Virus record (IMG/VR): IMGVR_UViG_2788500615_000003
Span: 1,196 to 65,195 of that record
Reading direction: 5' to 3' (one strand)
Length of the DNA stretch: 64,000 bases
Source: a virus
Taxonomy: Duplodnaviria > Caudoviricetes
Position 1 is the stretch's first letter. Every line of letters starts with the position of its first letter. Below, in pieces: positions 18,418 through 34,639 of the stretch. The position numbers were made by a program, and so were the translations under genes. The notes below the pieces were generated by a model. It was given only the letters and a program-made list of their open reading frames with translations, ran no database searches and was not told the DNA's origin.

Positions 18418-19565
18418 ACTCTCCTTTTCGTGGGCGCCGTTTCGACGCGCAAATCGTTGACCAAGGCGCGCTGCCCGATGAGGCGCAGCACGAAGCTGAA
18501 ATGGCGGCCACGGAGTCCGCGGCCGAAGATGAATCGCCCGTTGGTCAGCTCGCCGGCTGGCTCTTCGGCCAAGGGGTAGCCGTACGTCTCGGCTGTGCCG
18601 CTCTGCGTGGTGGTCACATCCATTTTGGCAGTGCCATCCAGCTCGTATTCAAGGTAGGCTGCGAGCGGGTGCACCAGCACGCCCTGCCCGATGTCCAGCT
18701 TGCCGGTGGCAACGCGTCCGGTGATGGGGTCGGTGCCGCCGTCCAGCGCGTGCACGCCGTCTTCGGCGACGCCGTAGAGCACGCCGTCGATCACCGCTAC
18801 GCTGGTGAAGGTGTACGGCGCATATCGACTCATGGCCCAGGTTTCGGTGTTCGCCGTCCAGGCCTGGCCGGCGCCCTCGCCCATCGGCCCGCCCTCCGCC
18901 ACTGCAACGTCGATCACCAAGTCTCGCGCGTGCAGGTGGTCCAGCACCGCAGAGGTGATGCCCACGCGCTCGATCACCATGGCCGCAGCAGCTTGGCGCG
19001 CGTCAAACGTCTCATCGGCGAGCACTGCGGTGTCCACCGCAAGCGATTGCGCGTGCACACGACCGCCAGCCCAGTCGGACGCGACCGCCTGGTCCACCAC
19101 CATCACAGAGGCAAACTGCCCGCTGAAATCGTAGATCTTCGCCGCATCGATGACCAGTGTGCGCACGCGCCGCTGGCCCAGCGCTTCGTCGCTGATGCGC
19201 GCGGTGTCGGCGACAAGCGCGCCCGCCCGGTCGATGACGGAATCCGCGGCAGCGGCCGAGTCCAGATGAAGCACCCGCAGGCGCTCGGTCAACCGCTCGC
19301 CCACCGCTACCGACTCGCTGACAACATCTCGCGCGCGCAGCCCATCCAACACTGCGTCGCTGGCGAACACCTGCTCATGCGCGATGTAGCGCGTGCTGCC
19401 GGATTCCTCATCGCTCGCCGTCGCGCTGTCGGTATGGATAGCCAGCAGCCCGAATAGCACCAAGCTGACGATCTTTGCGGCGTCCTCTGTGATGGCCGTC
19501 AAGCGAATCCAGGTGGAGTCGCTGGCGACCGCCGTGTCCTGGCTGTCGTCGCGATAGTTACTCAT
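18414..19565 (-). CDS. Virion structural/tail protein with D-x-A-x-A-S-D repeats
   Basis: Short periodic repeats and operon context. Confidence 0.75.
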   Translation of the reverse strand: MSNYRDDSQDTAVASDSTWIRLTAITEDAAKIVSLVLFGLLAIHTDSATASDEESGSTRYIAHEQVFASDAVLDGLRARDVVSESVAVGERLTERLRVLHLDSAAAADSVIDRAGALVADTARISDEALGQRRVRTLVIDAAKIYDFSGQFASVMVVDQAVASDWAGGRVHAQSLAVDTAVLADETFDARQAAAAMVIERVGITSAVLDHLHARDLVIDVAVAEGGPMGEGAGQAWTANTETWAMSRYAPYTFTSVAVIDGVLYGVAEDGVHALDGGTDPITGRVATGKLDIGQGVLVHPLAAYLEYELDGTAKMDVTTTQSGTAETYGYPLAEEPAGELTNGRFIFGRGLRGRHFSFVLRLIGQRALVNDLRVETAPTKRRV

Positions 19566-22158
19566 TGATGACTCCTACGAAATGGTGAGCGGTCTCGTGG
19601 TCAGCGAGAGAGGTGTGCCCCCAGCGCCGCCGTAGCTTGTTCTGGTCCTGTTCGTAGATGCTGGCGTAGCTGGCATCACCGATGGCGATGTGGATGGCAT
19701 CGCGGTAGAAGTAGGTGTCGTCCTCCGGCGAAAAGCCGAAGTACCAAGAATGGGGAATGTCGCGCTGCGCGATGGTGGATCCGGCCGCCTTCATGCTCAC
19801 GCTCAGGCGCCCAGAAGACTCCGCGGGGTATTCCTTGAGGCTCGAAAAGGGCTCGAAACCCGGCGCCTCGCCACCGATGACGACACCCCCGGCATGCTGC
19901 GTGCCCGACGAGCGCGAGGTGTACGGGCCGCAGATGGCGGTCACATCAAGGAAGCCACCCGGCGGCAGGTTGTACCAATTGCCGCTGTCGGCATAGTCGC
20001 TCAACTCCGTCGGCGAATACACCAGCGTGTCGATGTAGACGGGCACACCGTCCTTCGATGGCGGAAACCCCTTGTTGTGGTTGTCCGTCTGGCCCATCCA
20101 GTGGAACAGGTTGTCGTAGCACCACAGCTGGTACGAGGTCGGGTCCGCCATCGCGAACTGCTCAGTCTTCTCGGACTCGGACCGGCCCGAAGTGCTGTCC
20201 GTGTAGGGATAGAGGATGCAGTCACGCTCGAACACCGGCACGCAAGCAGCCACATCGATGCCGAAGCCCGACGTGCTCTTCACCTTGGTGCGGTGCATGT
20301 AGTAGCGAGCGCGGGAGAGCGAGCCAACGCAGTACAAGATCGGGGGCGTGGCAAATGCCGGCTGCCCGTAGCCCATGTCGGTCCCCGTGACGTTCGTGGT
20401 GGTGGTGACGGGTGGCGCCTCCTGCCGGTCATCGAACGCCGAGGTGTAGAAGTAGCCCATCAAGCCGGAGAGCCCGGTGGTTACAGTCTTCTCCCACTGC
20501 CCGACGATCATGTACTTCTCGAAGGTGGTCTGCTCCTTTTCCTGGAACTTGCGCTCGTCATAGAAATACTTCACAACCTGCAGTTCGTCATCGACATAGC
20601 AGCCGAACACGATGGTGTCGCACTTCACGGCCGGTCCCGCATAGTCCTCGGAGATCATCACAAACGATTCGCACCCCTTTCCGCTTTGCTCAGGAAATTT
20701 GAGGCGCCCCATGGACTTTGGGTTCTTGCCCGGCCAGTAGAGAGGCCCGCTGCCCACGCGCGCGACATTGCCGCCGTGCGAGGCAATCGGTGGCATTTCG
20801 AGCCTGTCCCAATACTCCAGATCGGAACCGGTCGCAGCGGCGGCGCGCGCGAGAACGGCCGCCGCGGATGCGCGGCGCACCTTGTACTTGATCGCCAACG
20901 ACCGCGCCGAGCTTCCGGTCAACGCGTTGAAGACGCCTGTCAGGTAGGCATTGACTCGATCCGCAGATTCTTGGTCTTGGAACTCCCAACTGTTCTTGAG
21001 CATCCCTCGGTTCGTGGCAGCATCCAGGCGCAGCTTCATCTTGTAAGCGTGCCCCTGCAGGAGGCCCGCGGCATTCCGGCTCCAGCACGTATTGAAGCCC
21101 TCGCTTCCTCGGCTGTTCAGCGACCATCCGCTGGCCGAGTAGAAGGCGCTGTGGGCGTAAAAGTCTGCGCAGTCGCACACCTTCACGATCACGCCAGCGC
21201 GGCGCCATGCCTCGAAGTCCTCCATCACTTCGGGAAACGCCTCTCCTGTCGGCATGCCGCCGAATCGGTCCAACAATTTCAGGATCTCCCCATCCCCTTT
21301 CTGTTCGACGTACTTGCGAAATGCCGCCGTCGTCGTCGCGGGGACCACGGGCAGCGGCATGGCGAAGACGCCACGCGCACCGATCTGCAGCAGCCACGGA
21401 GCGCCGTCGGTATCGAACGCCACGGCATTGCACTTCGAGGCCTTGTAGTCGCAGAGGAACTGTCCCTTCTTGTCGGGAAAGCCCGTGTAGCCTGGAAGAC
21501 GGACGTTGCCAAGCTGTGAGCGAACGTCACGCATGAAGCGCTCAGGAACCAGCATGCGTGCCCGCTCGATGGGGTCATCCGGCAGGTCGGCGAGCACCTG
21601 CCGGCCATACCCGCCGACCACCTGCATCACCTCGGACATAGCACCGCTGTACCAGGTCGGCCGGTGCTTCACGAACTGCGTGAAGGTGTAGATGCCGGTG
21701 TTCTCCGGCTTGAAATACTCGAACGCCGGGGCGTACTCGATCCGAAAGCGCTGCAGCGCCACATCTTTCGGAGGCAGCGCGTCAGCGTCCTCCGAATAGG
21801 CCGCCAAGCGCCGGCGCGCCTGCTCCGTCAGCTTGATGCCCACGCCCTCCCCTTCAAGCACCTGGGCCTTCGTGACCACGCCCGAAAACAGCATTGGAAT
21901 GTTCGTCTCGGCCAAGCCGTTGAGCTGGTGTTCGGGGTTCTCGTACCGTTCCAGGACCAGGATGCGGAACACGCCGCCCATGTCGATGGCCACCGCCTGG
22001 CGGCCGCTGGGCAGGTCCATGACGCGCTTCATGCTGTCGAGGTTCGACAGCTGTTTGAAGTTGGTCACGGTCCGGGCCAGCCGCTCTACGGCGGCGGCAT
22101 CATCGTGGGACAGCTCGGCCTGTTCGGCGAAGCGCCCGTATGGGCGCGGCGACAGCAT
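19558..22158 (-). CDS. Virion structural/tail protein (~866 aa)
   Basis: Likely start MLSPRPYGRF at 22158, right after the upstream stop codon. Confidence 0.75.
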   Translation of the reverse strand: MLSPRPYGRFAEQAELSHDDAAAVERLARTVTNFKQLSNLDSMKRVMDLPSGRQAVAIDMGGVFRILVLERYENPEHQLNGLAETNIPMLFSGVVTKAQVLEGEGVGIKLTEQARRRLAAYSEDADALPPKDVALQRFRIEYAPAFEYFKPENTGIYTFTQFVKHRPTWYSGAMSEVMQVVGGYGRQVLADLPDDPIERARMLVPERFMRDVRSQLGNVRLPGYTGFPDKKGQFLCDYKASKCNAVAFDTDGAPWLLQIGARGVFAMPLPVVPATTTAAFRKYVEQKGDGEILKLLDRFGGMPTGEAFPEVMEDFEAWRRAGVIVKVCDCADFYAHSAFYSASGWSLNSRGSEGFNTCWSRNAAGLLQGHAYKMKLRLDAATNRGMLKNSWEFQDQESADRVNAYLTGVFNALTGSSARSLAIKYKVRRASAAAVLARAAAATGSDLEYWDRLEMPPIASHGGNVARVGSGPLYWPGKNPKSMGRLKFPEQSGKGCESFVMISEDYAGPAVKCDTIVFGCYVDDELQVVKYFYDERKFQEKEQTTFEKYMIVGQWEKTVTTGLSGLMGYFYTSAFDDRQEAPPVTTTTNVTGTDMGYGQPAFATPPILYCVGSLSRARYYMHRTKVKSTSGFGIDVAACVPVFERDCILYPYTDSTSGRSESEKTEQFAMADPTSYQLWCYDNLFHWMGQTDNHNKGFPPSKDGVPVYIDTLVYSPTELSDYADSGNWYNLPPGGFLDVTAICGPYTSRSSGTQHAGGVVIGGEAPGFEPFSSLKEYPAESSGRLSVSMKAAGSTIAQRDIPHSWYFGFSPEDDTYFYRDAIHIAIGDASYASIYEQDQNKLRRRWGHTSLADHETAHHFVGVINE

Positions 22159-22160
22159 GC

Positions 22161-22736
22161 TTAGACGGTCAGGCTCAGGCGGTAGCCAATGTCGTACACG
22201 TCGGCGTTCTGGAAAACGCGCGCGGCAGCGTACTTCGTCGCCGACACCAGCGCGCCGGTGGTGCCGCCCTTGGCGTTGTTCGTCAGGATCGCGGCGCCGG
22301 TAACGTTGAGCTGCGCTGCGGTAGCGATGGTCACGCTCGCCACGGCCGCCATGTTGTCGATGGACCCGGTGTTGGTGTTGGCAGAGGTCCAGGCCGGCCG
22401 GGTCGGGCTCGTGTAGCCCTCGGTCAGGCTGACGATCTCCGACGCGACAGCTGCGAAGTTCGCCGCGGTCCAGTTCGCGACCGGCGCGGCCGCGCCGCTG
22501 AACAGCGCCAGGAAGTAGCCCGCGGGCTTTGGCGTACTGCCCAGCGCGACGTTCAAGATATGCGCCAGGCCTTCGGTGACGATCAGGTTCGGCGTGCGCG
22601 ACCACGCGCCGCCGTTCACGCGGTCGAAGTATTCGCCGCGGGCCAGCACGCCCTGGCGCGGAAAGTAGATGCCGCCTTCGCTGACATCGAATTGTTCTTT
22701 GTGAATGGCCGCGGCCAGCTCGTTGCGCAGAGTCAT
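22161..22736 (-). CDS. Virion structural protein (tail-associated)
   Basis: NLIVTEG..FLALF..EGYT motif typical of small phage tail proteins. AGGAG Shine-Dalgarno. Confidence 0.75.
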   Translation of the reverse strand: MTLRNELAAAIHKEQFDVSEGGIYFPRQGVLARGEYFDRVNGGAWSRTPNLIVTEGLAHILNVALGSTPKPAGYFLALFSGAAAPVANWTAANFAAVASEIVSLTEGYTSPTRPAWTSANTNTGSIDNMAAVASVTIATAAQLNVTGAAILTNNAKGGTTGALVSATKYAAARVFQNADVYDIGYRLSLTV

Positions 22737-22761
22737 AGGAAGCTCCTGTGGAAGTCCTATG

Positions 22762-22775
22762 GCGCACTCCTGCGC
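22762..22775 (-). promoter_or_regulatory. GGA-loop RNA hairpin GCGCA-GGAG-TGCGC (site A)
   Basis: One of three identical 12-nt cores. Lies in the 5' leader of the gene starting at 22736. Confidence 0.6.
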
Positions 22776-22808
22776 ACCGGTTGGAAAGCCCGCAGATGCG
22801 GGAAAGTC

Positions 22809-23999
22809 TCAGACTACAGCGGTCAGCAGCCGCCGATCAAACACTACAGAGGTGCCGCCGCGCGCGGCGATGCCGCTCATCACGCCGGCCTGCACCTCAA
22901 CCACCTGCCCTGAATGCGTGCCGGCCACATAGCCGTTCTCCGCCAGCCAGATCGCAGTGCCGCCGCCACCTTGCGACAGGTCGCTTCCCACCGTGTCCGA
23001 ATCGACCAGGATGGCGCTCCCCGGCACCGGCGCCCGGGCGGTCTTGCGCACCATGTTCAGGGCCTCGGGCGCCGCGCCCTCCAAGAAGGCAACATGATCG
23101 ACTTGGCCGACCCAGATGCCGCCGTCCACCGGCTGCACGAAGGTGATGCGCTGCGGCATCTGGACGAAGCCATGGCGCTCGTTGTGCAGGTGGTAGGCAA
23201 GCGCCTCGGAGAAGCGCAGAACGTTGGCTCTGGCCGTCAGCAGGCGGCCGCGCCAGTATTTGAGGTACTTGCCCGTCGGCATGGGAGAGAGGTTGAGGAA
23301 CTGCGGCGGCCGGCCCAGCTCCGGAAGCCGGGGCACCGACATGGTGGCGCCGCTCACTGCGTGGTCTCCGGCGCGCGCCAACTCGCCCCCGTTGGGCCGC
23401 GTCAGGTACAGCCGCATGCCCGTCACGCTCGGATCCAAGCAGAGCGGCGGCGTGATCTCCAACGCACCGCCCTCGCCAAGTTCGGTGAAGCTGATGGCCG
23501 ACGGCGCCGACTCCAACGCGCCGCGCAGCCACGCCACGGCAGCACCATAGGTGCCCGCGCTCATCGAACCGGCACCGGCCACCACCAGCGGCGCGGCCGG
23601 CGTGTCCAGCGTCAAGCGCGCCGCGCGCGCACCGTCGAACGTGAAGATGCCCGCCGGCGCCGCGACGCACACCAGGGTGTTCAGCACCGCGTGCGACACG
23701 TCGCCATCGCCGACCGCCAGGAGCGCTTCGCTGATCCAGGTCATCGGATCGATCTTCACCCACTGGCCGGCGAGCGTGCCGAAGGTGTCACGGTGCAGCG
23801 GGCTCTGCCACAGATCGCGGTAGCGGATGGCGGTCACGCGCCGCGTGCCCGCTCGCAGCGAGGGCTGGCCGGCAGGTGAAACGTTTACGTTCACCGCATC
23901 GCGCACGAACAGCCGCGGGCTGTCTCCGCCGCGCTGCAGGGCCGCGTCCTCCGCCACCACGTTCATGCCGGCCAGCGGCATCAGGGCAATGTCTGCCAT
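22809..23999 (-). CDS. Virion structural protein (tail tube/nozzle-like)
   Basis: Start MADIALMP overlaps the upstream TGA. Beta-rich sequence. Confidence 0.7.
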   Translation of the reverse strand: MADIALMPLAGMNVVAEDAALQRGGDSPRLFVRDAVNVNVSPAGQPSLRAGTRRVTAIRYRDLWQSPLHRDTFGTLAGQWVKIDPMTWISEALLAVGDGDVSHAVLNTLVCVAAPAGIFTFDGARAARLTLDTPAAPLVVAGAGSMSAGTYGAAVAWLRGALESAPSAISFTELGEGGALEITPPLCLDPSVTGMRLYLTRPNGGELARAGDHAVSGATMSVPRLPELGRPPQFLNLSPMPTGKYLKYWRGRLLTARANVLRFSEALAYHLHNERHGFVQMPQRITFVQPVDGGIWVGQVDHVAFLEGAAPEALNMVRKTARAPVPGSAILVDSDTVGSDLSQGGGGTAIWLAENGYVAGTHSGQVVEVQAGVMSGIAARGGTSVVFDRRLLTAVV

Positions 24000-26908
24000 C
24001 AGAAGGCTCCTTTTCGGTACTGGTCCGCGTTGCCATCCGGGCGGATGTAGTGCACTGCGGGCTTGGCATTGGGCACGCCCATGTCCGGCAGGTCCACACC
24101 TACAGGCGCCAGTGTGCGCGGCGCCGGGCCAGGCGGGACATAGGCATTGCGGACACGCATGCGCTCGGCGAAGTGCTCTGGGTCGTACTCGCTCAACATG
24201 CTGTCGAAGCCGCCTGGCTCCAGCCCACGAATGCGCAGCGAGATCCACGTCACGCCGAAGCGCTGAGCGTCGAAGCCGCCGGGGATGGTGGGCATAGGCG
24301 GTCCGACGTGCAGCGACTGCCACTGGTACGGCGGTTCGCCGCGCGAAGAGCCCATACCCAGGGCGTTGAACCCCACAAGGTGGAAGCTCCTGTGCAGCAG
24401 TGAGATCCACGTCACGCCGAAGTCCGGCGGCGCCAAGCCCACCGGCTTCACGGTCTCGGGGCCGAGATATGGCCCGCGGGCAACGCTTGGCTGCCCGAGC
24501 ACCTGCATGTCGGCCGCCCCGTACTGCTTCACGAACTGCGTGCCGTCTCCCAAAATGACCCAGCCCATGCGATAGGCCTGAATGCCAGCCGGCTCCAGGT
24601 AGCGGCGGTGCAGTTGCACGGACGCGGAGCCGACCTGCGCGGTGTTGCCCAACGAGTAAGGTTCCAGGACTCCACGGTAGGTACGAACGGAATGCCGCCC
24701 GAAGCGCGCGCCCGGCCCGTACTCCACCGTCTGGCCGACGTAGTGCAGGTTGGTTGCGCCGTGGTTGCGGATGGCTTGAGCCGGCGCCTCCACCACGGCC
24801 CAGATCGTGTGCGGCGTGACGCGCGCAGGGGAAGGTTCGAACACCTCGGCGCCCGGCCACTCCTGAACCGTGAGCACCCGCCTCTTCAGGCCGACGGTCG
24901 GCACGCCGTAGCCGTCCACCTTGATGCCGGCATCGACCATGATTCCGTTGCTGCGAACCGTGGCGTCGCCGACCTTCAGCGCGTCAATGCCGAGGGGGTA
25001 CAGGACGTACTGATTGAGCCCCGGCTTGCCGAATGCGCTCAACGAGTCCACCGGTTCGCCATCCTGAATAATCCACTGCGGCGAGTACGGCGGCGCGCCG
25101 GTCCGGGTCACCACCAGCTTGTCGCCGATGCGCATGAAATTGTTACCCGGCACCGCGATGCTCTGCTTCCGGTCCGCGATCTTGGCCTGGCCGAACAGCT
25201 GCATGCTGTTGCCATCAGGCCCCACCGGCCGAAACTGCAGGCGAACGAAGGCGTCCCCGAACTCCTCTGCGTTCCATCCGTAGCCGCGCATCTCCGGTGT
25301 CACGTTGTGCACGCGCGGCTCGCCGAAGATGTCCTGGTGCGCCCACTTCGGCGCCACGATGTTGAAGTGGATGGACAGCGCGGCCAGGCCAAGGCGCACC
25401 ATGTCATCGCCCTTCGGATCGACGTAGCGTGTGTACAGCTTGACCTCTGGCAGCGGGACGTCGGGCGGCTGGATGGCATACCGCGGCTCTAGTGCCACCG
25501 TCCGAATGGCGAAGTCGATGAAGGCGACGCCGAACGCCGCGGAGTCGATGCCACCGATGCGCTGGTAGTAGCGCCGCGTGTTCTCCAGCGCGGCCGTGCC
25601 GAACAACTGCGCACCAGCACCAGCGGGCGCGAGCACCCGCGCGGCGTTGTAGACCGCGGTCCAGCTGAGCACCGGCGGCGGCTCGATGCCGTCCATCGGG
25701 AAGCGCCGCACGCCGTAGGCCACCAGGCCGGCGGGCGTGGTGCCCGGGAAACCAGGTGGGGTCATGCCCGCCGGCGCGATCACCCGCGCGTTGTTGTAGA
25801 TCAGCGGCTCGCCCGGCCGCGGCGGCGCCGTGCTGAAGGTCGCGACCGTCTTGTTCCTGTTCTCGATGGCGGTCCACTGCGACCACGCGGGCGGGTTCAG
25901 CCCGTCGTTCGGGTCGTAGGCCTGCAGCACGAACTGGCGCAGGTTGTAGGCCTGGGCGCGCCCCCAGCGGTACTGCTCCTGCACGTTCGTCTCGAAGCCA
26001 GGCGGCTGCACGAAGGTCAGGTAGTTCTTGATCGTCGTCGCGCCCCACACTTCGCGGAAGCCCTGCGGCGCCACCGTCTGCGAGACGGGGACGATGCGCG
26101 TGCCGAAGGCCAACGAGTCCCACCCCAGCGGCGAGAGGAACCGCGTGCCACCCACGTTCGGCCGGGCCACGGCATCGAGGAAAGCGCCCGCCGGCGCCAG
26201 CACGCGCGTGCCCTGGCTGATCCAGGCTGTGCCGAAGCCCGGTGTTGGAATGCCTGCGGCGAGTTGCACGTACTGCCGGTCGTGACTGACGCGGTTCGTG
26301 CTGGAAATGCTGGTGGCCACCAGCCCGGTCGGCAGCAGGTAGCGCGTGTAGAGCCAGACTGTCGAGTTCGTGCCCAATCCTGGCGGCACGATGTTCCCAG
26401 CCGCGATGTAGCGGTTGCGGTTGATGATGGTCGGGTTGCCGCCGGCCATCGCGTCGAAGCCGACCGGCACCACCGGACGGTGCTTCAGCTGCGCGTTGGT
26501 CGCGCCGAATGCCGAAGCGTTGAACCCAGCCACTGCAACGTAGGTGTGATACCTCCATGCAGTGGCAACACCGAACGCCTGGAACGCAGAGCCCGTCGGC
26601 CGAACGAACTCACGTCCGTTGCGCACGGCAGGCACACCAGCCGGCGCCTCGGCGATGGTCGCGGGAAACAGGTACTGGGTATCTCCGCCTGGGCCTTCGT
26701 CCTGAACGAACTCAAGGCCGACAACTCTGCCCGCGGGCGGAACGTAGCCCGACGGCCCGAAATCGAGTGCTACGTTCTTGCCCAGCGGAGGCTGATACGG
26801 GGGACGGTCGACAAAGTTGAACGCGGCCGCCGCACCATCCGGCGCGACATACCCCGGCCCCACAAAATTGAACGTGAGTGCGTCCGACGCTGGCGGGGTA
26901 TAGGGCAT
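23999..26908 (-). CDS. Repetitive tail/fibre-like virion protein
   Basis: 969 aa with recurring PxGFDxxxFG units. A 21-bp exact repeat occurs at 24240 and 24402. Confidence 0.7.
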   Translation of the reverse strand: MPYTPPASDALTFNFVGPGYVAPDGAAAAFNFVDRPPYQPPLGKNVALDFGPSGYVPPAGRVVGLEFVQDEGPGGDTQYLFPATIAEAPAGVPAVRNGREFVRPTGSAFQAFGVATAWRYHTYVAVAGFNASAFGATNAQLKHRPVVPVGFDAMAGGNPTIINRNRYIAAGNIVPPGLGTNSTVWLYTRYLLPTGLVATSISSTNRVSHDRQYVQLAAGIPTPGFGTAWISQGTRVLAPAGAFLDAVARPNVGGTRFLSPLGWDSLAFGTRIVPVSQTVAPQGFREVWGATTIKNYLTFVQPPGFETNVQEQYRWGRAQAYNLRQFVLQAYDPNDGLNPPAWSQWTAIENRNKTVATFSTAPPRPGEPLIYNNARVIAPAGMTPPGFPGTTPAGLVAYGVRRFPMDGIEPPPVLSWTAVYNAARVLAPAGAGAQLFGTAALENTRRYYQRIGGIDSAAFGVAFIDFAIRTVALEPRYAIQPPDVPLPEVKLYTRYVDPKGDDMVRLGLAALSIHFNIVAPKWAHQDIFGEPRVHNVTPEMRGYGWNAEEFGDAFVRLQFRPVGPDGNSMQLFGQAKIADRKQSIAVPGNNFMRIGDKLVVTRTGAPPYSPQWIIQDGEPVDSLSAFGKPGLNQYVLYPLGIDALKVGDATVRSNGIMVDAGIKVDGYGVPTVGLKRRVLTVQEWPGAEVFEPSPARVTPHTIWAVVEAPAQAIRNHGATNLHYVGQTVEYGPGARFGRHSVRTYRGVLEPYSLGNTAQVGSASVQLHRRYLEPAGIQAYRMGWVILGDGTQFVKQYGAADMQVLGQPSVARGPYLGPETVKPVGLAPPDFGVTWISLLHRSFHLVGFNALGMGSSRGEPPYQWQSLHVGPPMPTIPGGFDAQRFGVTWISLRIRGLEPGGFDSMLSEYDPEHFAERMRVRNAYVPPGPAPRTLAPVGVDLPDMGVPNAKPAVHYIRPDGNADQYRKGAF

Positions 26909-26919
26909 GCGCTACCCGC

Positions 26920-27297
26920 TCACATAGCCTTTGGCGAGACGTTGGCCAAGATCATGTCGTTGTAGCCGTCATGCCGGCACACCACGTCGAATCGCAAGGC
27001 CGTGCTCAGTCCGTCGATGCGCCAAGTGCCATCAACGCCGGACATCACCGACGCAACCAACATCCCATCGCCCATCGCGCCCGTGACCGTCCGAAGCAGC
27101 ACACGGATCTCCGCCGAGCCGGGCACGCCCTCGATCTTCGTGATGCCAGCTGGATAGGTGCCGGCCAGATACCCGGCGCCGGCCACGTAGGCGTCGCCGC
27201 CCGGCAGGTCGGCGTTCACCAGGTTCGCCGCCGGCACCACATAACCGGCGGTGAGCAGTCGCCCGGCGCGCATGCCGGTAGGTGGTCCGTACCCCAT
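26920..27297 (-). CDS. Small tail-associated beta-sandwich protein (paralog of 27970-28308)
   Basis: Shared GAGYLAG...GDG..VA.V.S..DGTWR.DGL...FDVV...ND.I.ANVSP pattern. Confidence 0.75.
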   Translation of the reverse strand: MGYGPPTGMRAGRLLTAGYVVPAANLVNADLPGGDAYVAGAGYLAGTYPAGITKIEGVPGSAEIRVLLRTVTGAMGDGMLVASVMSGVDGTWRIDGLSTALRFDVVCRHDGYNDMILANVSPKAM

Positions 27298-27300
27298 GGA

Positions 27301-27960
27301 TCAGACCTCCACAGGGGTGATCGGGCCGTCAGCGATTGGGCGATACCCGGAGGGCCCCAGATGCGTGACCAGCACCTGATCAACGCTCGGCGCCGGCCAC
27401 GACCAGGTGCCATTGGTCGCCGGAGTCAGCGAAGCCAAAAGAGCACCGGTGGCCCAGTTCTGAATCAGCACGCGGGTTGCGGCCACGCCGCCTTCCAGAC
27501 GCGACGTGCCACGCACTTGCGTCCAGATCGTGCTCATCTTCGTGGTCGGGCCGCCTGTGACCATGAAGTCCACGAACGAGACTATGGTTGTCCACGCACT
27601 CCCGTCGTTCGAGCCTTGCAACTCGAAGTCGCGCGGATATTCCAACGGCTGCGCGGTCGAAACGAGACGCAGGGACCGCACGACCACGGGAGCAGGCAGC
27701 TCCACGGTCAGCAGCGACGGAGTGCCCGCCACCACGCGGTTGTCCGATTCCCAATAGGTGGCCGCATTGCCGTCATTGGCGTTGGCCGGCACGAAGGACT
27801 GGTAGATCCCGTTCGAGGACATGGTGCCGCTGCGCATCACGTCCAGTCCGGTTGCGTCAGCTGCCTCGAACATCGACCAATCCGCCACGCAGTAGTAGCG
27901 CAGATCGGCGCTTGAGTTCTTCGTGAACTTCAGCCTGTAGAACTTGAAAGCTGTCGCCAT
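27301..27960 (-). CDS. Discoidin/F5-8 type C carbohydrate-binding domain protein (putative receptor binding)
   Basis: ANANDGNAATYWES and PRDFELQGSNDGSAWT motifs. Confidence 0.8.
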   Translation of the reverse strand: MATAFKFYRLKFTKNSSADLRYYCVADWSMFEAADATGLDVMRSGTMSSNGIYQSFVPANANDGNAATYWESDNRVVAGTPSLLTVELPAPVVVRSLRLVSTAQPLEYPRDFELQGSNDGSAWTTIVSFVDFMVTGGPTTKMSTIWTQVRGTSRLEGGVAATRVLIQNWATGALLASLTPATNGTWSWPAPSVDQVLVTHLGPSGYRPIADGPITPVEV

Positions 27961-27969
27961 GCTTGGCTC

Positions 27970-28308
27970 CTAGGTGCTCGGCGAGACATTCGCAACGATC
28001 ACGTCGTTGTGCCCGTTCTTGCGCCCAACGACATCGAATTTCAAGCCCGGATTGAGGCCATCCACGCGCCAAGTGCCATCGGCGGCAGACACAACCTCGG
28101 CAACCACTGCACCGTCGCCATCAGTCCCTGCGGCGGGCCTATACAGCACGCGAACGGTTGCACTTTTTGGCACTCCATCGACGGTCGTAGTGCCGCCCGG
28201 CGCCTCGCCCGCCAGATAGCCCGCGCCCACGCTCGGCAGCATGAAGGGCACGTATTCGCGCTTCCACCCGAAGCGGGCTTCTTCCATCGCGTCGATCACG
28301 TATGGCAT
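27970..28308 (-). CDS. Small tail-associated beta-sandwich protein
   Basis: Paralog of 26920-27297. Confidence 0.75.
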   Translation of the reverse strand: MPYVIDAMEEARFGWKREYVPFMLPSVGAGYLAGEAPGGTTTVDGVPKSATVRVLYRPAAGTDGDGAVVAEVVSAADGTWRVDGLNPGLKFDVVGRKNGHNDVIVANVSPST

Positions 28309-28311
28309 GGC

Positions 28312-29316
28312 TTAACCCCACGGCAACAGCGGCACGGAATACGAATCCGCAGGCATCCGGTAATAGCACGGGCTGCATGGACCTAAGCCGAAACAGGTTC
28401 GGAAAACCCGCTGCCCGCCGCCATCGAGATCGAACGTAATCAGCGTGTCATCCACGCCACCATTGCGCACCATGAACCCAAGATTGAAGCGGTGCCGCTT
28501 CCCATCGAGAATCTTCGAGGCTCGGACAATGCGAACGCCTTCGCTGGTGGTGCTCGCCTGAGGGTCGAAGACAAACCCCGCGCTGGTCTGCAACTGGGTT
28601 GCCCAAATACCAGCAGCGCAAGTCCAGTACCTCGTACCAATCAAGCTTGTGTCCGCCAGCGAAACCCCATAGACCGATGAACTCGCTATCGTTTCGGGGG
28701 AAGTGGCAACCAAGAACACATTGTTCGCAACATCGCTGCGAAAGATGCCAAGGGTGAACAGCGATCCGCTGTCCGGGTAGGTGGCCTGGTTTCCGGATAA
28801 AGCCGTCAGGTAGCTCTTTGAATGGTGAATCCAAAAATGGTCTGCGCCGCAGCTCGCGGAAATCGGTGTCTCGGTGATGGGAACGATGTTTGCCGACCAC
28901 TGGTAGGTTGTCTGTTGGGTAGCGCTGAGAATGCTCTCGCTCAGCTTGTTTGATGTAAGAACCCCACCCAACAGCTCCATTCCAATTCGGCAATGCCAGT
29001 ACGCATGGCGGCTTGACGTACTCACTTGGGCCTGCCGGAAGAAAACTTGAAGGTACAGTTCCAGTGACGGGTGCTTGTAGAGCTTGTAGCCATCCGCGTT
29101 GAAGCCGCTCACTGTCGCGGAGGTCACTGCAGTTTCGCCAGCAGCAGGTGCGCCAGCGACGAAGGTTCCAGCCTGCCCCGCGAAGCTCGCAGCAGGCACC
29201 TGCTGCATCCCGGAGGCGACGATGGTGTTGTGCACCGTGTTGTGCGCCAACGCAATAGAGTCCAGCGAGCCGAAGATCGCATCGCGTGCTCGCACGCTGT
29301 TTCGAGCGGTTCCCAT
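28312..29316 (-). CDS. Variable tail/receptor-binding protein
   Basis: Lower GC than its neighbours, Ser/Thr-rich and beta-rich, inside the tail operon. Confidence 0.55.
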   Translation of the reverse strand: MGTARNSVRARDAIFGSLDSIALAHNTVHNTIVASGMQQVPAASFAGQAGTFVAGAPAAGETAVTSATVSGFNADGYKLYKHPSLELYLQVFFRQAQVSTSSRHAYWHCRIGMELLGGVLTSNKLSESILSATQQTTYQWSANIVPITETPISASCGADHFWIHHSKSYLTALSGNQATYPDSGSLFTLGIFRSDVANNVFLVATSPETIASSSVYGVSLADTSLIGTRYWTCAAGIWATQLQTSAGFVFDPQASTTSEGVRIVRASKILDGKRHRFNLGFMVRNGGVDDTLITFDLDGGGQRVFRTCFGLGPCSPCYYRMPADSYSVPLLPWG

Positions 29317-29319
29317 CTT

Positions 29320-29655
29320 CTATTCCTTCAATTCGCCAAAGGGCGTTTCATTGGCCCAGTAGCCCTTCGCGGTGTGCCAGTCGGTGTACTCACGCAAAAG
29401 CGCATCGTTGCCACGCTGGCCCGCGTAGCGCAGCGCGTAGTCGATGGCCCATTGCTGGGTGTCGCGGTTTGGCGGGCAAGGTGCCAGCTCGTGCACGAAC
29501 ATCTGGAACGGCGGCAGCGCGCCGACCTTGCGCCAGTCGATAGCGACGGGCGACGCCGGCGTGAGCTCAATGGGCTTTGGGGCGATGCCCTCCACGCCGA
29601 CGCGCTGCGGCGCCGGCTTCTGCGGCTCGGCCGCGGCAAATTGCGTGTCTTGCAC
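29320..29655 (-). CDS. Phage hypothetical protein
   Basis: GTG start preceded by GGGAG. Ends in YWANETPFGE. Confidence 0.7.
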   Translation of the reverse strand: MQDTQFAAAEPQKPAPQRVGVEGIAPKPIELTPASPVAIDWRKVGALPPFQMFVHELAPCPPNRDTQQWAIDYALRYAGQRGNDALLREYTDWHTAKGYWANETPFGELKE

Positions 29656-29663
29656 TCCTGCGC
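29652..29663 (-). promoter_or_regulatory. GGA-loop motif GCGCAGGAGTGC (site B) overlapping a GTG start
   Basis: Identical 12-nt core. Confidence 0.55.
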
Positions 29664-29672
29664 TCCCGGTCT

Positions 29673-30080
29673 TCAGACCTTGAAGATCTTGTTGGTGCCG
29701 TTGTCCCAGGTGACGATGATGTCGCCGCCGTTGGGCGTGATGGGCAGGCCGGTGGCCGTGTCGATGTAGGCGATCAGCGGCGAGGTGGACTCGGTGCCGG
29801 TGTCGCGATAGATCACGATGGCCTCGATGCTGGCGCCCGACACCGCAGTGAAGGTCACGTCCGCGCCGTCGGCCGCGCCACCCGTAGTGGTCTTCGCCGT
29901 CAGCGTCACCGGCCCGGCGATGCGCGCCGAGGTCGGGATGTCGGACAGATACTGGTGGATGGCCGTCTGCGGCGTGTACGCGCCGGTGTCCACCAAGATG
30001 ATCTTGATGGTGTCGGTCAGCCAGTTGAACTGGCCTTCGAGGAAACGCTGACGCGCAGCGTCATAGAGCGTGTTTGCCAT
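29673..30080 (-). CDS. Virion structural protein
   Basis: MANTLYDAARQRFL...LPITPNGGDI..W, a familiar small phage structural family. AAGGAG Shine-Dalgarno. Confidence 0.8.
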   Translation of the reverse strand: MANTLYDAARQRFLEGQFNWLTDTIKIILVDTGAYTPQTAIHQYLSDIPTSARIAGPVTLTAKTTTGGAADGADVTFTAVSGASIEAIVIYRDTGTESTSPLIAYIDTATGLPITPNGGDIIVTWDNGTNKIFKV

Positions 30081-30297
30081 GGGTGTGCTCCTTCGCAATG
30101 GGCAAAGAAGCGCACTCCTGCGCGCTGGGTTGGGTTTGGGCCTTGCGGCCCGGTCGGTCGATAGCCACGCTGGCGTCGGCCAGCACCACAAGGCGAGCGC
30201 GCTGGCCGGACTTTTCGGCGAGCGTGACCGTGGCGCCGTTGATCGTGAAGGTCTCCCCCACGCGCAATTCGATGTGCAGCTTCTTGGGCTGGTTCAT
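30061..30297 (-). CDS. CsrA/RsmA-like RNA-binding protein
   Basis: LHIELRVGETFTING-ATVTLAEKSGQRARLVVLADASVAIDR aligns by eye with CsrA (LILTRRVGETLMIG..VTVTVL...GNQVRIGVNAPKEVSVHR). Confidence 0.6.
   Translation of the reverse strand: MNQPKKLHIELRVGETFTINGATVTLAEKSGQRARLVVLADASVAIDRPGRKAQTQPSAQECASLPIAKEHTHGKHAL
30110..30123 (-). promoter_or_regulatory. GGA-loop RNA hairpin GCGCA-GGAG-TGCGC (site C)
   Basis: Identical core, about 30 nt upstream of the ATG at 30080. Confidence 0.6.
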
Positions 30298-30971
30298 AGT
30301 GGGTACACCACCGTCGTCTGGTCGGTGTCCTCGCGGGTGATGCGCCGCATGTCGGCGTCAGGCATGGGGCCGAAGTAGGCGGTGAATTCGCCCTCGGCAA
30401 TCGCAGCTCGGTTGGGGTCGAATGCCTGCGAGTCCGGGATGCTGAATGCGCGATGCAGCGGCCACTGAATCAGCTTCTCGTGGTGCGCCTTGTGGATCTC
30501 GGGCACATCGTCGTTCGCCGTCATCGTGGCGAGCGGGAGGCGGTAACCCTCGATGAACAGCGTACCGGCCGCGGTCGGCGTGTTCACCAGTCGCAACGTG
30601 GTGTCGCCTTGCAGGGCGTAGCGCAGCTCTCCAGCCGGCACCCCTTCGCCCACACGCCAGCCCGGTGCCTCGCGGTCTAGCCAGCCACGCGACACCAGCT
30701 TCAGCTCCACAGGCTCTGGCACCGCGTCCACCAAATGCAGGTTCGTCAGCTCGTAGAGGCTGGCGTGCAGCGGGTAGGTGTGGCGGCCAGCCTCCATCAC
30801 GATCTGGCACACCGCCGGAAGCGAGTCTTCGAGCAGCAGCCGCGCGCGCACCGCGGCCTGGGCCTGCGCATCGTTGAACCAGTCGCGCACGTCCTCATCA
30901 GCCCACAGGTAGGGCGCAACGGTGTCGCGAGCAAGCACACGGAAACGGCGGATGAGCTGCTGAAGCGTCAT
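30294..30971 (-). CDS. Head-tail adaptor protein
   Basis: D...PYLW.D...FNDAQ and PEIH..HH..L..W motifs, located after the capsid genes. Confidence 0.7.
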   Translation of the reverse strand: MTLQQLIRRFRVLARDTVAPYLWADEDVRDWFNDAQAQAAVRARLLLEDSLPAVCQIVMEAGRHTYPLHASLYELTNLHLVDAVPEPVELKLVSRGWLDREAPGWRVGEGVPAGELRYALQGDTTLRLVNTPTAAGTLFIEGYRLPLATMTANDDVPEIHKAHHEKLIQWPLHRAFSIPDSQAFDPNRAAIAEGEFTAYFGPMPDADMRRITREDTDQTTVVYPL

Positions 30972-30974
30972 GGA

Positions 30975-31412
30975 TCAGGGCGCGCCGAATTGGTCGAGCA
31001 GCTCCACCACCTTCGCGCGCATGTTGTCCACGCTCAGGTTCTTGGGCACCTTCTGGCTGAACTTCTCCAGCGCGAACGCCTGCAGGGCGTCCTTGTCCAT
31101 CGCGTTCAGCGATTCCACCAGATCCATGCGACGGTTCTCCGTCTCCTGCAGCGCCTTCTTGTTCTTGTCCGCGTCCTTCAGAAGAGCGGCGGTGTCGTCG
31201 CCCTCGGGCTTCGTCGGCTCGGGTGCCGGCGCGCTGTCCTCGCCGCGCGTGAACACATCCTCGTGGCGCAGCAGCTTGGCGGCCAGTTCGAGGTCGGTGA
31301 CCACACGGGTCTGGCCCGGATTGAAGGGCAAGCTGGAGCCGTACAGGCGGTCGATGAACGGCGTTTCGCGGCCGGTGTACTTCACGGGCACGCCAGGGTT
31401 CGAAGTGGTCAT
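30975..31412 (-). CDS. Phage hypothetical protein (head region)
   Basis: ORF with a GAGGA Shine-Dalgarno. Confidence 0.7.
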   Translation of the reverse strand: MTTSNPGVPVKYTGRETPFIDRLYGSSLPFNPGQTRVVTDLELAAKLLRHEDVFTRGEDSAPAPEPTKPEGDDTAALLKDADKNKKALQETENRRMDLVESLNAMDKDALQAFALEKFSQKVPKNLSVDNMRAKVVELLDQFGAP

Positions 31413-31470
31413 GTGGTGTCCTCGGGGGGTTGCCATCGGGGGAAGGCGTTGCCGCCCTCCCCCATCCGGT

Positions 31471-31950
31471 TTACTGCGCGCCCAGGCGCTCGCCGTGCAC
31501 GATCACGTCCACGCGGCCGGCCTTGGCATTGGCCGCGCCGGCGATGGTCAGCACCAGGAACGCTTCCTTGGCGAGCGTCACCGGGGCCTTGGCGACTGCG
31601 TTGCGGAGGCGGCCCGTGGCGTTGAGCACCAGGCCGGCGCCGAAGTACGCTGCGTCCTGCGGCACCTCGGGGCTGTCCACGCCGTCGATGTACTCGAAGC
31701 CGAGCGAACCGGTGACGGCCGCAGTCAGCGCGGTGGACACAATGACCTGCGAATCTTCCAGACGGAAGCCCGCCGGCAGAGTCTGCAGATACACCTTGTC
31801 GCCCACGCCGAGCGGCGCGTCCGAATTCGAGCGCACGGCAGCGCCGGCAGCGTTGGTTTCGAGGGTGCCGCGCAGCGTGGTGACGTTGCCGTAGGGGGCC
31901 ATGCCGCCGAACTGGTTGATGCCCAGTCCCTTGAGTTTGATGGTGGCCAT
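31471..31950 (-). CDS. Capsid decoration/cement-like protein
   Basis: Beta-rich 159-aa gene directly after the major capsid gene. Confidence 0.6.
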   Translation of the reverse strand: MATIKLKGLGINQFGGMAPYGNVTTLRGTLETNAAGAAVRSNSDAPLGVGDKVYLQTLPAGFRLEDSQVIVSTALTAAVTGSLGFEYIDGVDSPEVPQDAAYFGAGLVLNATGRLRNAVAKAPVTLAKEAFLVLTIAGAANAKAGRVDVIVHGERLGAQ

Positions 31951-32012
31951 GTGAGGCTCCTATGAATTTGGGATGTGAGGGAAGACGGGCCGGGTTGCCC
32001 CGGCCCAGGACA

Positions 32013-33302
32013 TCAGCCGCGCGGCTTGATGATCGGCACAGCGGTATCGAGCACCGTGACGCCGTGGTCGGTGAACTGCACCTCGTCGCCGTGGTCCACG
32101 GCGAAGCGGATCTTCGACATGCCCAGGATCGCGCCGATCAGCAGTTCCAGCTTGTCGCCGTGGTCACCGGGCTCTTCGCTCCAGAAGAACGGCATGCCGC
32201 TGTGCTCGGAAGCTGCGAAGGCCTGCGCCAGCGCCTGGCCGCCGAGCAGGATGGCTCGGTCGATGGCGAACTTGTCGGCAAATGCGGCCGGCACCAGGGC
32301 GTCGGTCTCCACTTCCGAGTCGTAGGCCGCGCAGTAGCGCAGAACGTCACCCGCATAGAAGCGGATTGGCTTCGGCATCTTCACCAGCAGGATGCCTTGC
32401 CACAGGCCGGCATCGCCGAGGAACAGCGGGTGGTCCTTGGCGAGGCGAGCGCGAGCGCTGGCGGCCGCCTGGAAGTTGCGGAATGCCGGGTCGGTCGCGA
32501 AGCCGCTGTACTGCGCTGGCGACAGCAGCATTACGCGCAGCGGGCTGTCGGTTGCGGCTTGGTCACCATCGAACTGCACCGGGGGCGGCGGCAGCGCGAT
32601 CTGGTCGATGTAGGCGCGCACGGCATCCACGGTTCCCATCTTCAGCAGGTCGGTCGAAGCGATGTCCACCTCGCCAGCGTTGACCTTGAGTTGGTCGATG
32701 CCGCCGGCCTTTGCCATGAAGTGGCGGTTCTTGGTCGGCGCCTTCACGCGGTTGACCATGATCTTCTTGAAGCCGGGGTGCGTCTCAACCGGAACCCGCC
32801 ATTCGATGTTGTCGTGGAAACCGCGGGCACCACCCATGTGAACGAGGATCGACTGGTCGATGTAGTCGTTCATCTTCTGCTGCGCGAGCGGGCGGCCCAC
32901 GCGGCGCAGGTCCACAGGGCTGCGGATCTGGCTCATCACATCGCCCATGTCGATGGGGAAGCGGGCCTGGTTCACGCGCAGGCGGTCTTCGGACAGCTTC
33001 ACGCCGACACCCTTGCCCTGGGCAATCTCGCTGCCCATGATGGGGTAGCCGCCGCTGGGGTTGATGAGGTTGAAGACCACCTCGTCGCCCTTGCCCTTGC
33101 CCAGGTCCTGCGCCTGCACGATGGGCATGTGGTTGCTCGACTGCTTCTTGATCGTCGCGATGGCGCCTTCGAGCTTGCGCATCTTGCCCGTGAGGCGGTT
33201 GAGCGTGGTGTTGCGCTGCTGGCAGACGGCGAAGACACCAGCGGCTTGCTGGATCATTGCCTTCGGGTCGCCATACTGCATCTGCGTTTTGGTCGCGGTC
33301 AT
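32013..33302 (-). CDS. Major capsid protein, N4-gp56/DUF4043 family
   Basis: DLGKGKGDEV.F, MGGARG, HPLF.G and RAILLGGQALA motifs. Strong AAGGAGG Shine-Dalgarno. Confidence 0.9.
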   Translation of the reverse strand: MTATKTQMQYGDPKAMIQQAAGVFAVCQQRNTTLNRLTGKMRKLEGAIATIKKQSSNHMPIVQAQDLGKGKGDEVVFNLINPSGGYPIMGSEIAQGKGVGVKLSEDRLRVNQARFPIDMGDVMSQIRSPVDLRRVGRPLAQQKMNDYIDQSILVHMGGARGFHDNIEWRVPVETHPGFKKIMVNRVKAPTKNRHFMAKAGGIDQLKVNAGEVDIASTDLLKMGTVDAVRAYIDQIALPPPPVQFDGDQAATDSPLRVMLLSPAQYSGFATDPAFRNFQAAASARARLAKDHPLFLGDAGLWQGILLVKMPKPIRFYAGDVLRYCAAYDSEVETDALVPAAFADKFAIDRAILLGGQALAQAFAASEHSGMPFFWSEEPGDHGDKLELLIGAILGMSKIRFAVDHGDEVQFTDHGVTVLDTAVPIIKPRG

Positions 33303-33343
33303 CTAGACCTCCTTGTGATGTGGTTCTTCGTGCGCCTCGCGGC

Positions 33344-34450: not shown

Positions 34451-34454
34451 GCCT

Positions 34455-34588
34455 GTCCCGCCACATATCGCCGTGGCCGCAAGGGCCAGCAATCCGGTGC
34501 AGAACCTGAACGGCCCTGCTCCATCTGCTATGGAGACTCACGCCCTTTCGGTCGTGACCTTCGCAACTGCACTCGCGCGCGGTTGCTT
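34455..34588 (-). ncRNA. Candidate structured leader RNA of the scaffold/capsid operon
   Basis: About five consecutive hairpins, including GNRA loops (GCGA, GAAA), between promoter 3 and the ATG. Confidence 0.4.
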
Positions 34589-34594
34589 GGGGGC

Positions 34595-34637: not shown

Positions 34638-34639
34638 CG

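Follow-up and report, generated by a model that had tools for sequence, protein, structure and literature searches.

The stretch of DNA analysed here, referred to below as the window, comprises 64,000 nucleotides (nt) of a Caudoviricetes record (IMG/VR IMGVR_UViG_2788500615_000003, positions 1,196 to 65,195), from a source genome of 7,015,237 bases in two contigs with 65.1% G+C. The virion genes of a temperate podovirus, of the F116 (Hollowayvirus) type, occupy its positions 18000-36000 as one block, with every gene on the minus strand. The subject of this study are two features of that block: a 12-mer, GCGCAGGAGTGC, which occurs three times, and a gene for a 78-residue protein related to the RNA-binding regulator CsrA (Table 1). 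We propose that the two are probably connected as operator and regulator.

In a megablast search, positions 22000-31000 matched 37 Pseudomonas phage records, with F116, LKA5, H66 and others at about 74% identity over 54% of the query. The gene order is that of F116p46-p54, namely the head-to-tail adaptor, the CsrA-like open reading frame (ORF), phrog_644 and phrog_11163, followed further downstream by phrog_8123 and phrog_11362. The closest named relative of the prophage block is carried by Variovorax paradoxus (L004).

The repeated 12-mer in the window

Exact searches located the 12-mer at 22764-22775, 29652-29663 and 30112-30123 (sites A, B and C), exactly three times in the window, always on the minus strand and within 7.4 kb, in agreement with the first-pass annotation of this sequence. 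The latter had also placed each copy close to a start codon. This stands for sites A and C, whose first bases precede the ATG codons at 22736 and 30080 by 39 and 43 nt, respectively, and is uncertain for site B. There the GTG codon at 29655 indeed lies inside the motif, as had been noticed; relatives use an ATG located 5-9 nt past the motif, and as this codon is ACG here, GTG 29655 is only a possible start. Site C falls, again as first described, within the 3' end of the CsrA-like ORF.

The number of copies carries little of the argument. In this G+C-rich window, 118 different 12-mers reach at least three copies, so that the weight rests on synteny and on the relatives rather than on the count. 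The whole genome contains five copies of GCGCAGGAGTGC, including the three window sites. A hand estimate from base composition gives about 3 for the genome and about 0.03 for the window, and the two copies outside the prophage thus fit chance. With the structure model described below, these two score only 20.6 and 14.4 bits, compared to 26.5-34.5 bits for the window sites. A scan of the window with the same model found nothing above 16.5 bits besides the three sites, and the matches at 51008 and 60137 lie within ORFs, away from starts. No Rfam family matches the element.

Conservation, fold and distribution of the motif

We collected 109 loci (1.86 Mb) via the neighbouring phrog_644 protein, a sample that is conditioned on the phrog_644 gene and consists of 26 reference-genome loci, 80 IMG/VR contigs and F116, LKA5 and the window. 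Named hosts include Pseudomonas, Variovorax, Acidovorax, Aquabacterium, Corticibacter, Dyella, Acinetobacter, Psychrobacter and Alkanindiges. CsrA-like ORFs were found with a hidden Markov model of a 16-member clade alignment (A1), and the fold was tested on 71 distinct motif copies with 8-nt flanks (alignment A2), with R1 as the structure model.

F116 and LKA5, which are about 26% diverged in DNA, each contain the motif exactly three times, at syntenic positions that match those of the window: one copy in the CsrA-like gene at its 3' end, one in the spacer that precedes the gene after next, and one in the phrog_8123 leader. Phage 8P, which lay outside model building, has all three sites as well (30.8, 27.8 and 18.4 bits). 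Across the 71 distinct copies, from loci with 37% to 69% G+C, the motif reads GCGCA-N-GAGTGC, with 11 of 12 positions invariant. Only position 6, where GGA begins, varies freely (G 42, T 19, A 9, C 1); the window's own copies all read AGGA. It is G in 11 of the 12 distinct site-B copies, where the AGGAG of the motif doubles as the Shine-Dalgarno (SD) sequence in relatives, and it varies at sites A and C, even within one phage. The first-pass annotation had taken GGA for the key element of the loop, a view we had to abandon because position 6 takes all four bases. Coding constraint can also be rejected as the cause of conservation: inside the CsrA-like ORF, relatives read the motif in two frames (AQEC/AHEC versus RRSA/RMSA/RKSA), and in L018 (Dyella), L021 (Corticibacter) and L101 it is intergenic, which shows that selection acts on the nucleotides.

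The alignment supports a hairpin in the register NNN-GCGC-[ANGA]-GUGC-NNN, with an A-N-G-A tetraloop on four invariant pairs (G-C, C-G, G.U, C-G), extended by three covarying flanking pairs. The first of these is CG 27, UG 17, AU 6, UA 3 and GC 2 times, the second GC 31, CG 13, AU 7 and GU 5 times, and the third GC 32, AU 9, GU 3, UA 2, UG 2 and CG 1 times. Many of the unpaired flank cells come from site-B copies, whose flanks are mostly unpaired and which form the upper stem only, and the shorter stem of site B noted in the first pass accordingly has 4 bp. The covariation score of this register is 0.221, compared to 0.101 +/- 0.014 in shuffled alignments and at most 0.108 in slid controls; none of 500 shuffles reaches it, a control that overstates significance because the rows of A2 are related by descent. 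The register originally proposed, GCGCA-GGAG-UGCGC, scored 0.039 against 0.055 in shuffles, all 500 of which reached it; sliding it by -2 gives the supported register, with a score of 0.183. RNAalifold, run independently on 19 site-A leaders, returned the same 7-bp hairpin, with every pair in all 19 and compensating changes at two flanking pairs.

The invariant G.U and the frequent U.G pairs fit the sense strand only, which points to an RNA-type structure. Orientation is nearly uniform: among the 171 exact copies in the 1.86 Mb, 168 lie on the coding strand and 3 on the opposite one, and the structure model, applied to 41 of the 75 loci with a CsrA-like gene (near-duplicates avoided, Bcep22 included), had all its 78 matches on the coding strand.

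The presence of the motif follows that of the gene. A CsrA-like ORF was found in 75 of the 109 loci, and the exact motif occurs in 74 of these 75 loci, compared to 1 of the 34 loci that lack the gene (50 of 51 versus 1 of 32 when counted by distinct phrog_644 sequence). Site A, which is 6-9 kb remote from the gene, is present in 48 of 60 loci with the gene and in 0 of 20 without it, and every lineage with site A has the gene; the position of site C is occupied in 71 of the 75 gene-bearing loci. Searching the 34 gene-less loci (517,811 bases) with the structure model gave only two sites, both in L085, a contig that ends 2.6 kb upstream of phrog_644. Locus L067, which has an identical site-C leader and about 87% DNA identity to L085 over two aligned segments, carries the CsrA-like gene about 3.5 kb upstream. 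Two further loci (L074 and L109), which have neither gene nor sites, branch beside or within a clade that has both. The hairpin is thus conserved at syntenic positions and travels with the gene, the pattern that the first-pass annotation had named as a check on its proposal.

Spacing to the start codons is similarly regular. For the phrog_644 gene, the motif begins 33-46 nt ahead of the ATG, apart from L102 with 61 nt, and for the phrog_8123 gene the distance is 34-46 nt, which in both cases places it about 20 nt upstream of the SD. At site B, it begins 8-18 nt before the start codon. At site A, a second hairpin follows 0-1 nt past the first and holds the AUG or the SD in its 3' arm. Its sequence varies by clade while the pairing is kept (CAUAGGA/UCCUAUG, CCUUGG/CCAAGG, CAUGA-UUACC/GGUAAUCAUG, CCUUC/GAAGG). 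The consensus of the 19 site-A leaders has four pairs: the closing one involves the A of the AUG and is U-A in 17 of 19 leaders, and double changes are seen 5, 3 and 3 times at the three that follow. In the window, this is the CATAGGA/TCCTATG stem around the SD and ATG of 22736 that had been recognized at the outset and that RNAfold also predicts. At site C, the minimum-energy fold often pairs the motif with bases around the start codon; for the window's leader, RNAfold gives such a pairing, with GCACACCCAUGGC, as an alternative.

Gene and hairpin also occur before major capsid genes. In L018, the CsrA-like gene precedes the major capsid gene and the hairpin lies 36 nt before the capsid ATG; in the IMG/VR contig L101, the order is CsrA-like gene, hairpin, a CCUUGG/CCAAGG stem over the SD, and major capsid gene. 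L101 has two CsrA-like genes (5203-5440 and 9797-9955), located before the major capsid and the phrog_644 genes and each followed by a hairpin copy. The phrog_8123 leader of the same contig contains two tandem hairpins, 66 and 36 nt before the ATG.

In Bcep22 and in the Ralstonia phage Claudette, a CsrA-like gene precedes the major head gene with a related hairpin between them; the F116-type structure model found nothing convincing in these two phages. The Bcep22 hairpin, GCGC-AGGAU-GUGC, lies about 55 nt before the major head ATG; it has one exact copy, and a one-mismatch copy about 880 nt inside the giant gene gp75, with no second copy at a gene start. The Claudette hairpin, ACGC-AGGA-GUGU, has A-U in place of G-C at the outermost of the invariant pairs, a double change, and can alternatively pair with CACACUCC just before the ATG. 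Claudette (L114) has an HNH endonuclease gene inserted at 9186-9671, on the opposite strand, which separates the CsrA-like gene from the major head gene and with it the regulator from its presumed operator. The two phages further share AAUCGGACCAG 10-20 nt upstream of the hairpin (Bcep22, L002, 9200-9235; Claudette, 9790-9815), preceded by an A+T-rich -10-like stretch; judging from this sequence pattern, a late promoter may lie here, from which transcripts would begin with the hairpin.

The CsrA-like protein and the neighbouring genes

The 78-residue ORF matches the PHROG family phrog_8397, 'CsrA-like regulator', with E 1.8e-17 and nearly over the full length of the profile (residues 5-60 on positions 1-56 of 64). 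Its score against the Pfam CsrA family (PF02599) is 14.5 bits (E 0.036), below the gathering cut-off of 27 bits, and its top Pfam match, itself weak, is FlbT (16.6 bits, E 0.0079). The clade as a whole behaves alike: 10 of 16 members match Pfam CsrA at E <= 1, the best with 1.4e-4, and none reaches the cut-off. Comparison of a profile of the 16 members with PDB gave CsrA or RsmE for all of the top seven matches, the best being 2jpp with E 3e-4.

The AlphaFold model of the protein has a predicted local distance difference test score (pLDDT) of 74.8 overall and 83-94 over residues 1-40, and is confident over residues 1-50. The first matches listed by Foldseek are all chains of CsrA, RsmA or RsmE, with target-normalized TM scores (TMt) of 0.70-0.76 for the first nine and 0.67 for one nuclear magnetic resonance model; root-mean-square deviations are mostly 0.9-1.4 A over 44-47 columns, with two exceptions of 65 and 34 columns. 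By these predictions, and in line with the first-pass annotation, the 78-residue protein is a divergent protein of the CsrA fold. The model is of a single chain; CsrA consists of five-stranded subunits, and its fold depends on an interlocked homodimer. The residues invariant in the clade are L26, K29, G31, A34 and R35, which form K-S-G-Q-x-A-R-L.

The host genome contains no csrA above the Pfam cut-off, its best match being the prophage gene itself, and a search of the whole genome with the clade profile found only this one copy. F116 (NC_006552.1) differs: the catalogue of phage csrA genes by Sobrero and Valverde (2020) has as its F116 entry a second, canonical CsrA of the RsmM type encoded elsewhere in the genome (YP_164288.1), and lists Bcep22 and DC1 as weak matches (PMC7366521, passages on phage csrA). 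Profile searches found no RsmM-type canonical CsrA gene in the window's prophage or the host genome. From sequence, F116 would be a candidate for carrying two CsrA-family proteins of different specificity.

As a gene, the phage csrA relative has been described before, being annotated 'CsrA-like regulator' in phage records: phrog_8397 genes are annotated in F116 (F116p47), H66, Bcep22 (gp54), BcepIL02, BcepMigl, 8P and Ralstonia phages, where the records give the name only and neither target nor function. The statement in the first pass that no description was known therefore has to be narrowed to the cis element: in the article texts covered by our literature search, no cis target is described for any CsrA-like protein from a phage, while the clade may be listed in supplementary tables of PMC7366521 and PMC8450108. 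The records of LKA5 and Bcep22 label several neighbours as structural and the CsrA-like gene not, which at the level of annotation weakly suggests that its product is not a virion protein.

Table 1. Genes and RNA features of the virion block in window coordinates
Feature	Position	Strand	Remarks
Head-to-tail adaptor gene	30294..30971	-	directly upstream of CsrA-like gene; Pfam PF24175 SU10_adaptor, E 8.8e-27; phrog_399
CsrA-like regulator gene, 78 residues	30061..30297	-	start overlaps adaptor stop by 4 nt; last 20 nt overlap phrog_644 gene
phrog_644 gene, 135 residues, ATG 30080	29673..30080	-	phrog_644, E 9.5e-53; directly downstream of CsrA-like gene
phrog_11163 gene, at most 111 residues, start uncertain	29320..29655	-	phrog_11163, E 8.7e-39; residues 10-109 matched
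phrog_8123 gene, 191 residues, ATG 22736, no assigned function	22161..22736	-	phrog_8123, E 5.7e-79
phrog_11362 gene, 866 residues	19558..~22158	-	downstream of phrog_8123; profile covers residues 204-1069 of a longer ORF
Hairpin A, GGU-GCGC-[AGGA]-GUGC-GCC	22761..22778	-	R1 34.5 bits; 7-bp stem by RNAfold and RNAalifold
Hairpin 2 of the site-A leader, CAUAGGA ... UCCUAUG	22734..22760	-	RNAfold; encloses SD AGGAG 22743-22747 and AUG
G+C-rich hairpin CCCGCAUCUGCGGG	22789..22802	-	read from the sequence; upstream gene ends directly before it (stop codon 22809-22811), and hairpin A follows after 10 nt
Site B, 4-bp upper stem only	29652..29663	-	R1 26.5 bits; GTG 29655 inside; preceded by GGGAG 29664-29668
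Hairpin C, AGC-GCGC-[AGGA]-GUGC-GCU	30109..30126	-	R1 33.4 bits; within 3' end of CsrA-like ORF
Site-C leader	30078..30108	-	stem CUUUGC/GCGAAG abuts SD AAGGAG 30088-30093; RNAfold minimum-energy fold -24.8 kcal/mol

The gene that follows the regulator encodes the phrog_644 protein. Its AlphaFold model (pLDDT 86.6) has as best PDB match 9d93_Ra, a chain of the tail tip of mycobacteriophage Bxb1 (E 3.7e-7, TMt 0.91), with neck and connector chains as weaker structural matches, and its homologue in phage 8P is annotated 'minor tail subunit'. On the strength of the model, it is a tail or neck component of the virion. The protein is unusually conserved, with 75-99% identity across prophages of Moraxellaceae, Pseudomonas, Comamonadaceae and Dyella and 54-62% in assemblies of Neisseriaceae, Kapaibacterium and Chloroflexia, while its neighbouring genes diverge much faster. 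Searches with Pfam and PHROG profiles yielded no functional assignment for the phrog_11163 and phrog_8123 proteins.

A 1069-residue ORF (19558-22767), whose GTG at 22767 lies inside hairpin A, was considered as a gene and discarded as spurious. It spans phrog_8123 and phrog_11362, an artefact that arises because the high G+C content leaves the phrog_11362 frame open upstream across the whole phrog_8123 gene.

No sigma-70-like promoter was found in 18000-37000, and terminator-like sites, among them hairpin C, occur at chance level (10 found, 11.7 expected). The G+C-rich hairpin CCCGCAUCUGCGGG was not flagged by the terminator scan; comparable CCCG...CGGG hairpins occupy the same place in relatives, and from its sequence it may be a terminator or a processing or stabilizing hairpin.

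Between its homologues of F116p50 and p51, the window contains three genes that are additional to those of F116 (26920-28308, minus strand). Two encode paralogous phrog_38322 proteins (27970-28308 and 26920-27297) and the third a 219-residue protein with an F5/8 type C (discoidin, carbohydrate-binding) domain (27301-27960; Pfam E 7e-11); by sequence, the three may form a host-recognition cassette. The list of repeated 12-mers in the window is topped by a tandem array of five copies of a 9-nt unit of the GCCGGTGCT type at 12163-12215 on the plus strand, which is probably a Gly/Ala/Pro-rich repeat in a coding region.

Candidate roles of the element and comparison with known systems

We consider it probable, with a likelihood of roughly 60%, that the 12-mers constitute an RNA operator through which the phage's CsrA-like protein controls the translation of virion genes. 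The late mRNA of this F116-like temperate podovirus would thus contain three copies of a conserved operator hairpin, to which the phage's own divergent CsrA-fold protein would bind. At sites A and C, the hairpin sits about 20 nt upstream of the SD and is usually followed directly by a second, predicted structure that sequesters the SD or the AUG, whereas at site B it lies over the SD itself; binding would then change the access of ribosomes to the start sites. The targets would be virion genes, namely those for the tail or neck protein, for two proteins without an assigned role and, in some relatives, for the major capsid protein. The idea of the first-pass annotation that this is a self-contained post-transcriptional circuit of the phage stands as such, and is plausible in a host without a csrA of its own. 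Its further suggestion, that the circuit sets the stoichiometry of tail proteins, finds no support here; in some relatives the element stands before the major capsid gene.

As to the direction of control, repression appears somewhat the more probable, by analogy. The loop holds the SD at site B, sites A and C have a second GGAG-type site at the SD about 20 nt away, and CsrA, FlbT and the MS2 coat protein offer precedents. Activation, in which the protein would keep the site-C motif apart from the start region, is the less favoured direction, though not by far.

Several observations weigh against such an operator. A CsrA-type operator has GGA in a hairpin loop near the SD, and of this only the hairpin and its position are kept here, the loop being A-N-G-A. 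The arginine that contacts RNA in CsrA is R44; its equivalent in the window's protein, Arg48 by alignment with Escherichia coli CsrA, is present as the first-pass annotation had said, but only 3 of the 16 clade members have arginine there. With neither GGA required nor R44 conserved, the specificity of the protein would differ from that of every CsrA studied. Site C lies within the gene or at most about 100 nt from it in most loci, so that its co-occurrence with the gene is largely a matter of physical linkage. For site A, on a tree of phrog_644 and phrog_8123, the gene changes state at least 10 times and the site at least 5 times, yet this leaves only four independent contrasting pairs on well-supported branches, an underpowered comparison with a joint change in about one. 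Some loci deviate as well: Acinetobacter prophages with the gene have site C only, site A is missing in 12 of 60 gene-bearing loci, L072 has the gene and only one-mismatch copies of the motif, and L084 has no site C. Finally, the AUG is predicted to be paired (P>0.5) in 22 of 23 distinct motif-bearing site-A leaders against 8 of 16 motif-free ones, and in 27 of 36 distinct motif-bearing site-C leaders against 15 of 30 from loci without gene and motif, but this enrichment is confounded by G+C content, as the motif-free leaders come mostly from low-G+C hosts.

The alternative that survives best, though we think it rather unlikely, is that the hairpin is a cis-acting RNA element that functions without the CsrA-like protein, acting as a 5' stabilizer or an RNase processing site of the late transcript, binding a host factor, or forming one half of a self-contained switch by pairing with the start region, and that its linkage to the gene is due to site C. 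It would explain why in many leaders the site-C motif can pair with the start region (CAUGAGUG with CACUCAUG, or GGAGUGC with GCACUCC), it agrees with the G+C-rich hairpin before site A, as at an operon junction, and the independent contrasts do not establish a link between the gene and site A. However, 11 invariant nucleotides, including those of the loop and the G.U pair, persist across loci of 37-69% G+C while their downstream pairing partners differ, which is the pattern of a sequence-specific trans factor, and relatives from the same host genera that lack the gene also lack the element according to the structure model (33 of 34 loci, 517,811 bases).

Less probable still, and compatible with an operator in the phage mRNA, is that the protein mainly targets host mRNAs or host defence, with the phage hairpins being incidental or secondary. 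The published ideas on phage CsrA relatives go in this direction. Campa et al. (2021) propose that phage RsmA might repress host CRISPR-Cas (PMC8450108, the passage on RsmA), and Adler et al. (2025), whose text on phage csrA states that its role "has not been previously tested", obtained smaller plaques upon knockdown of one homologue (PMC11879866). In their discussion of csrA relatives, Sobrero and Valverde call for loss-of-function experiments on the role of these genes (PMC7366521), and the part of a review that cites the DC1 gene does so only regarding biofilm (PMC8310193). The phage proteins meant in these proposals closely resemble bacterial CsrA, and their hosts have a csrA, whereas the present clade is divergent and below the Pfam cut-off, its gene lies inside the virion block and the host here has no csrA; moreover, the motif is no commoner in the host genome than expected by chance.

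The least probable explanation is that the motif is recognized in duplex DNA, either within a late promoter or by a DNA-binding late regulator whose operator it would be: its distance of 33-46 nt from the starts, its location past a terminator-like hairpin at site A and the A+T-rich -10-like stretch 15-20 nt upstream of the related hairpin in Bcep22 and Claudette would suit it, but the flanks covary as base pairs with G.U and U.G, which duplex recognition does not need, site B lies 8-18 nt before the start and serves as SD, site C is within a translated ORF, 18000-37000 is free of sigma-70-like promoters, and the linked candidate factor has a predicted RNA-binding fold.

An RNA operator read by the CsrA-like protein thus remains the reading we prefer. 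It can be extended, as a doubtful proposition, to the entire clade, which may have evolved a new RNA specificity (A-N-G-A on a GCGC/GUGC stem) and with it a host-independent translational checkpoint on virion genes (capsid, neck or tail, and others), comparable to the assembly checkpoint of CsrA, FliW and flagellin, the protein and its operator co-diverging into the F116, the Bcep22 pentaloop and the Claudette A-U types.

Control of phage genes by a phage protein that binds a small RNA element at a start is known from the coat-protein hairpin at the replicase start of MS2/R17 and from RegA of T4. The folds of these proteins are unrelated to CsrA, and their role was shown by experiment, whereas the CsrA-like circuit is inferred. 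In bacteria, RNA-binding proteins control the translation of an abundant structural protein via its leader in the CsrA-FliW-flagellin system of Bacillus subtilis and the FlbT-flagellin system of Caulobacter. The element before the major capsid gene in L018, L101, Bcep22 and Claudette is similar in this respect, and FlbT is the top weak Pfam match of the protein. No FliW-like antagonist was identified, and a link of the phage element to assembly, as with FliW, is speculation.

The closest published pattern is that of the Start-Associated Sequences (SAS) of Cluster K mycobacteriophages. The section on SAS in Pope et al. (2011) describes 13-bp sequences of the GGGATAGGAGCCC type, which contain the SD, lie 3-8 bp before starts and occur in 11-19 copies per genome (PMC3203893). 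According to the same section, these actinophage sequences are conserved across subclusters, rare in the host and suspected of a role in translation initiation, and it names neither a hairpin nor a trans factor. The 12-mers resemble them as a short, asymmetric motif of nearly single orientation just upstream of several phage starts, but differ in sequence and spacing, in having 1-4 copies, a covarying hairpin and a linked candidate protein, so that they are analogous to SAS and not members of that group.

CsrA relatives are commonly encoded by phages, plasmids and integrative elements, but what they do during the life cycle of a phage has hardly been tested, and the published ideas concern manipulation of the host. 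A divergent phage clade now has a precise candidate target in its own late mRNA, in a host without csrA. The phrog_8397 genes of the F116 group belong to the same family and have the same order of adaptor, CsrA-like and phrog_644 genes.

Among the closest known systems is the CsrA/RsmA/RsmE family of translational regulators (PF02599; RsmE on the SD hairpin of hcnA, PDB 2jpp). Shared with it are the small predicted CsrA fold, the short leader hairpin near or over the SD and, sometimes, an additional purine-rich site that lies at the SD, at a distance of about 20 nt. The usual operator of a CsrA dimer has such a two-site geometry, which matches the spacing between hairpin and SD site here. The present system departs from it in several points: the protein does not reach the Pfam cut-off, an invariant GCGC/GUGC stem carries A-N-G-A as its loop, arginine is not conserved at the R44 position, the gene is part of the virion block of a phage, the host lacks csrA and an Rfam scan detected no known sponge RNA. 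If the proposed operator is real, the CsrA fold can be retuned away from GGA, which matters for the prediction of CsrA regulons from sequence.

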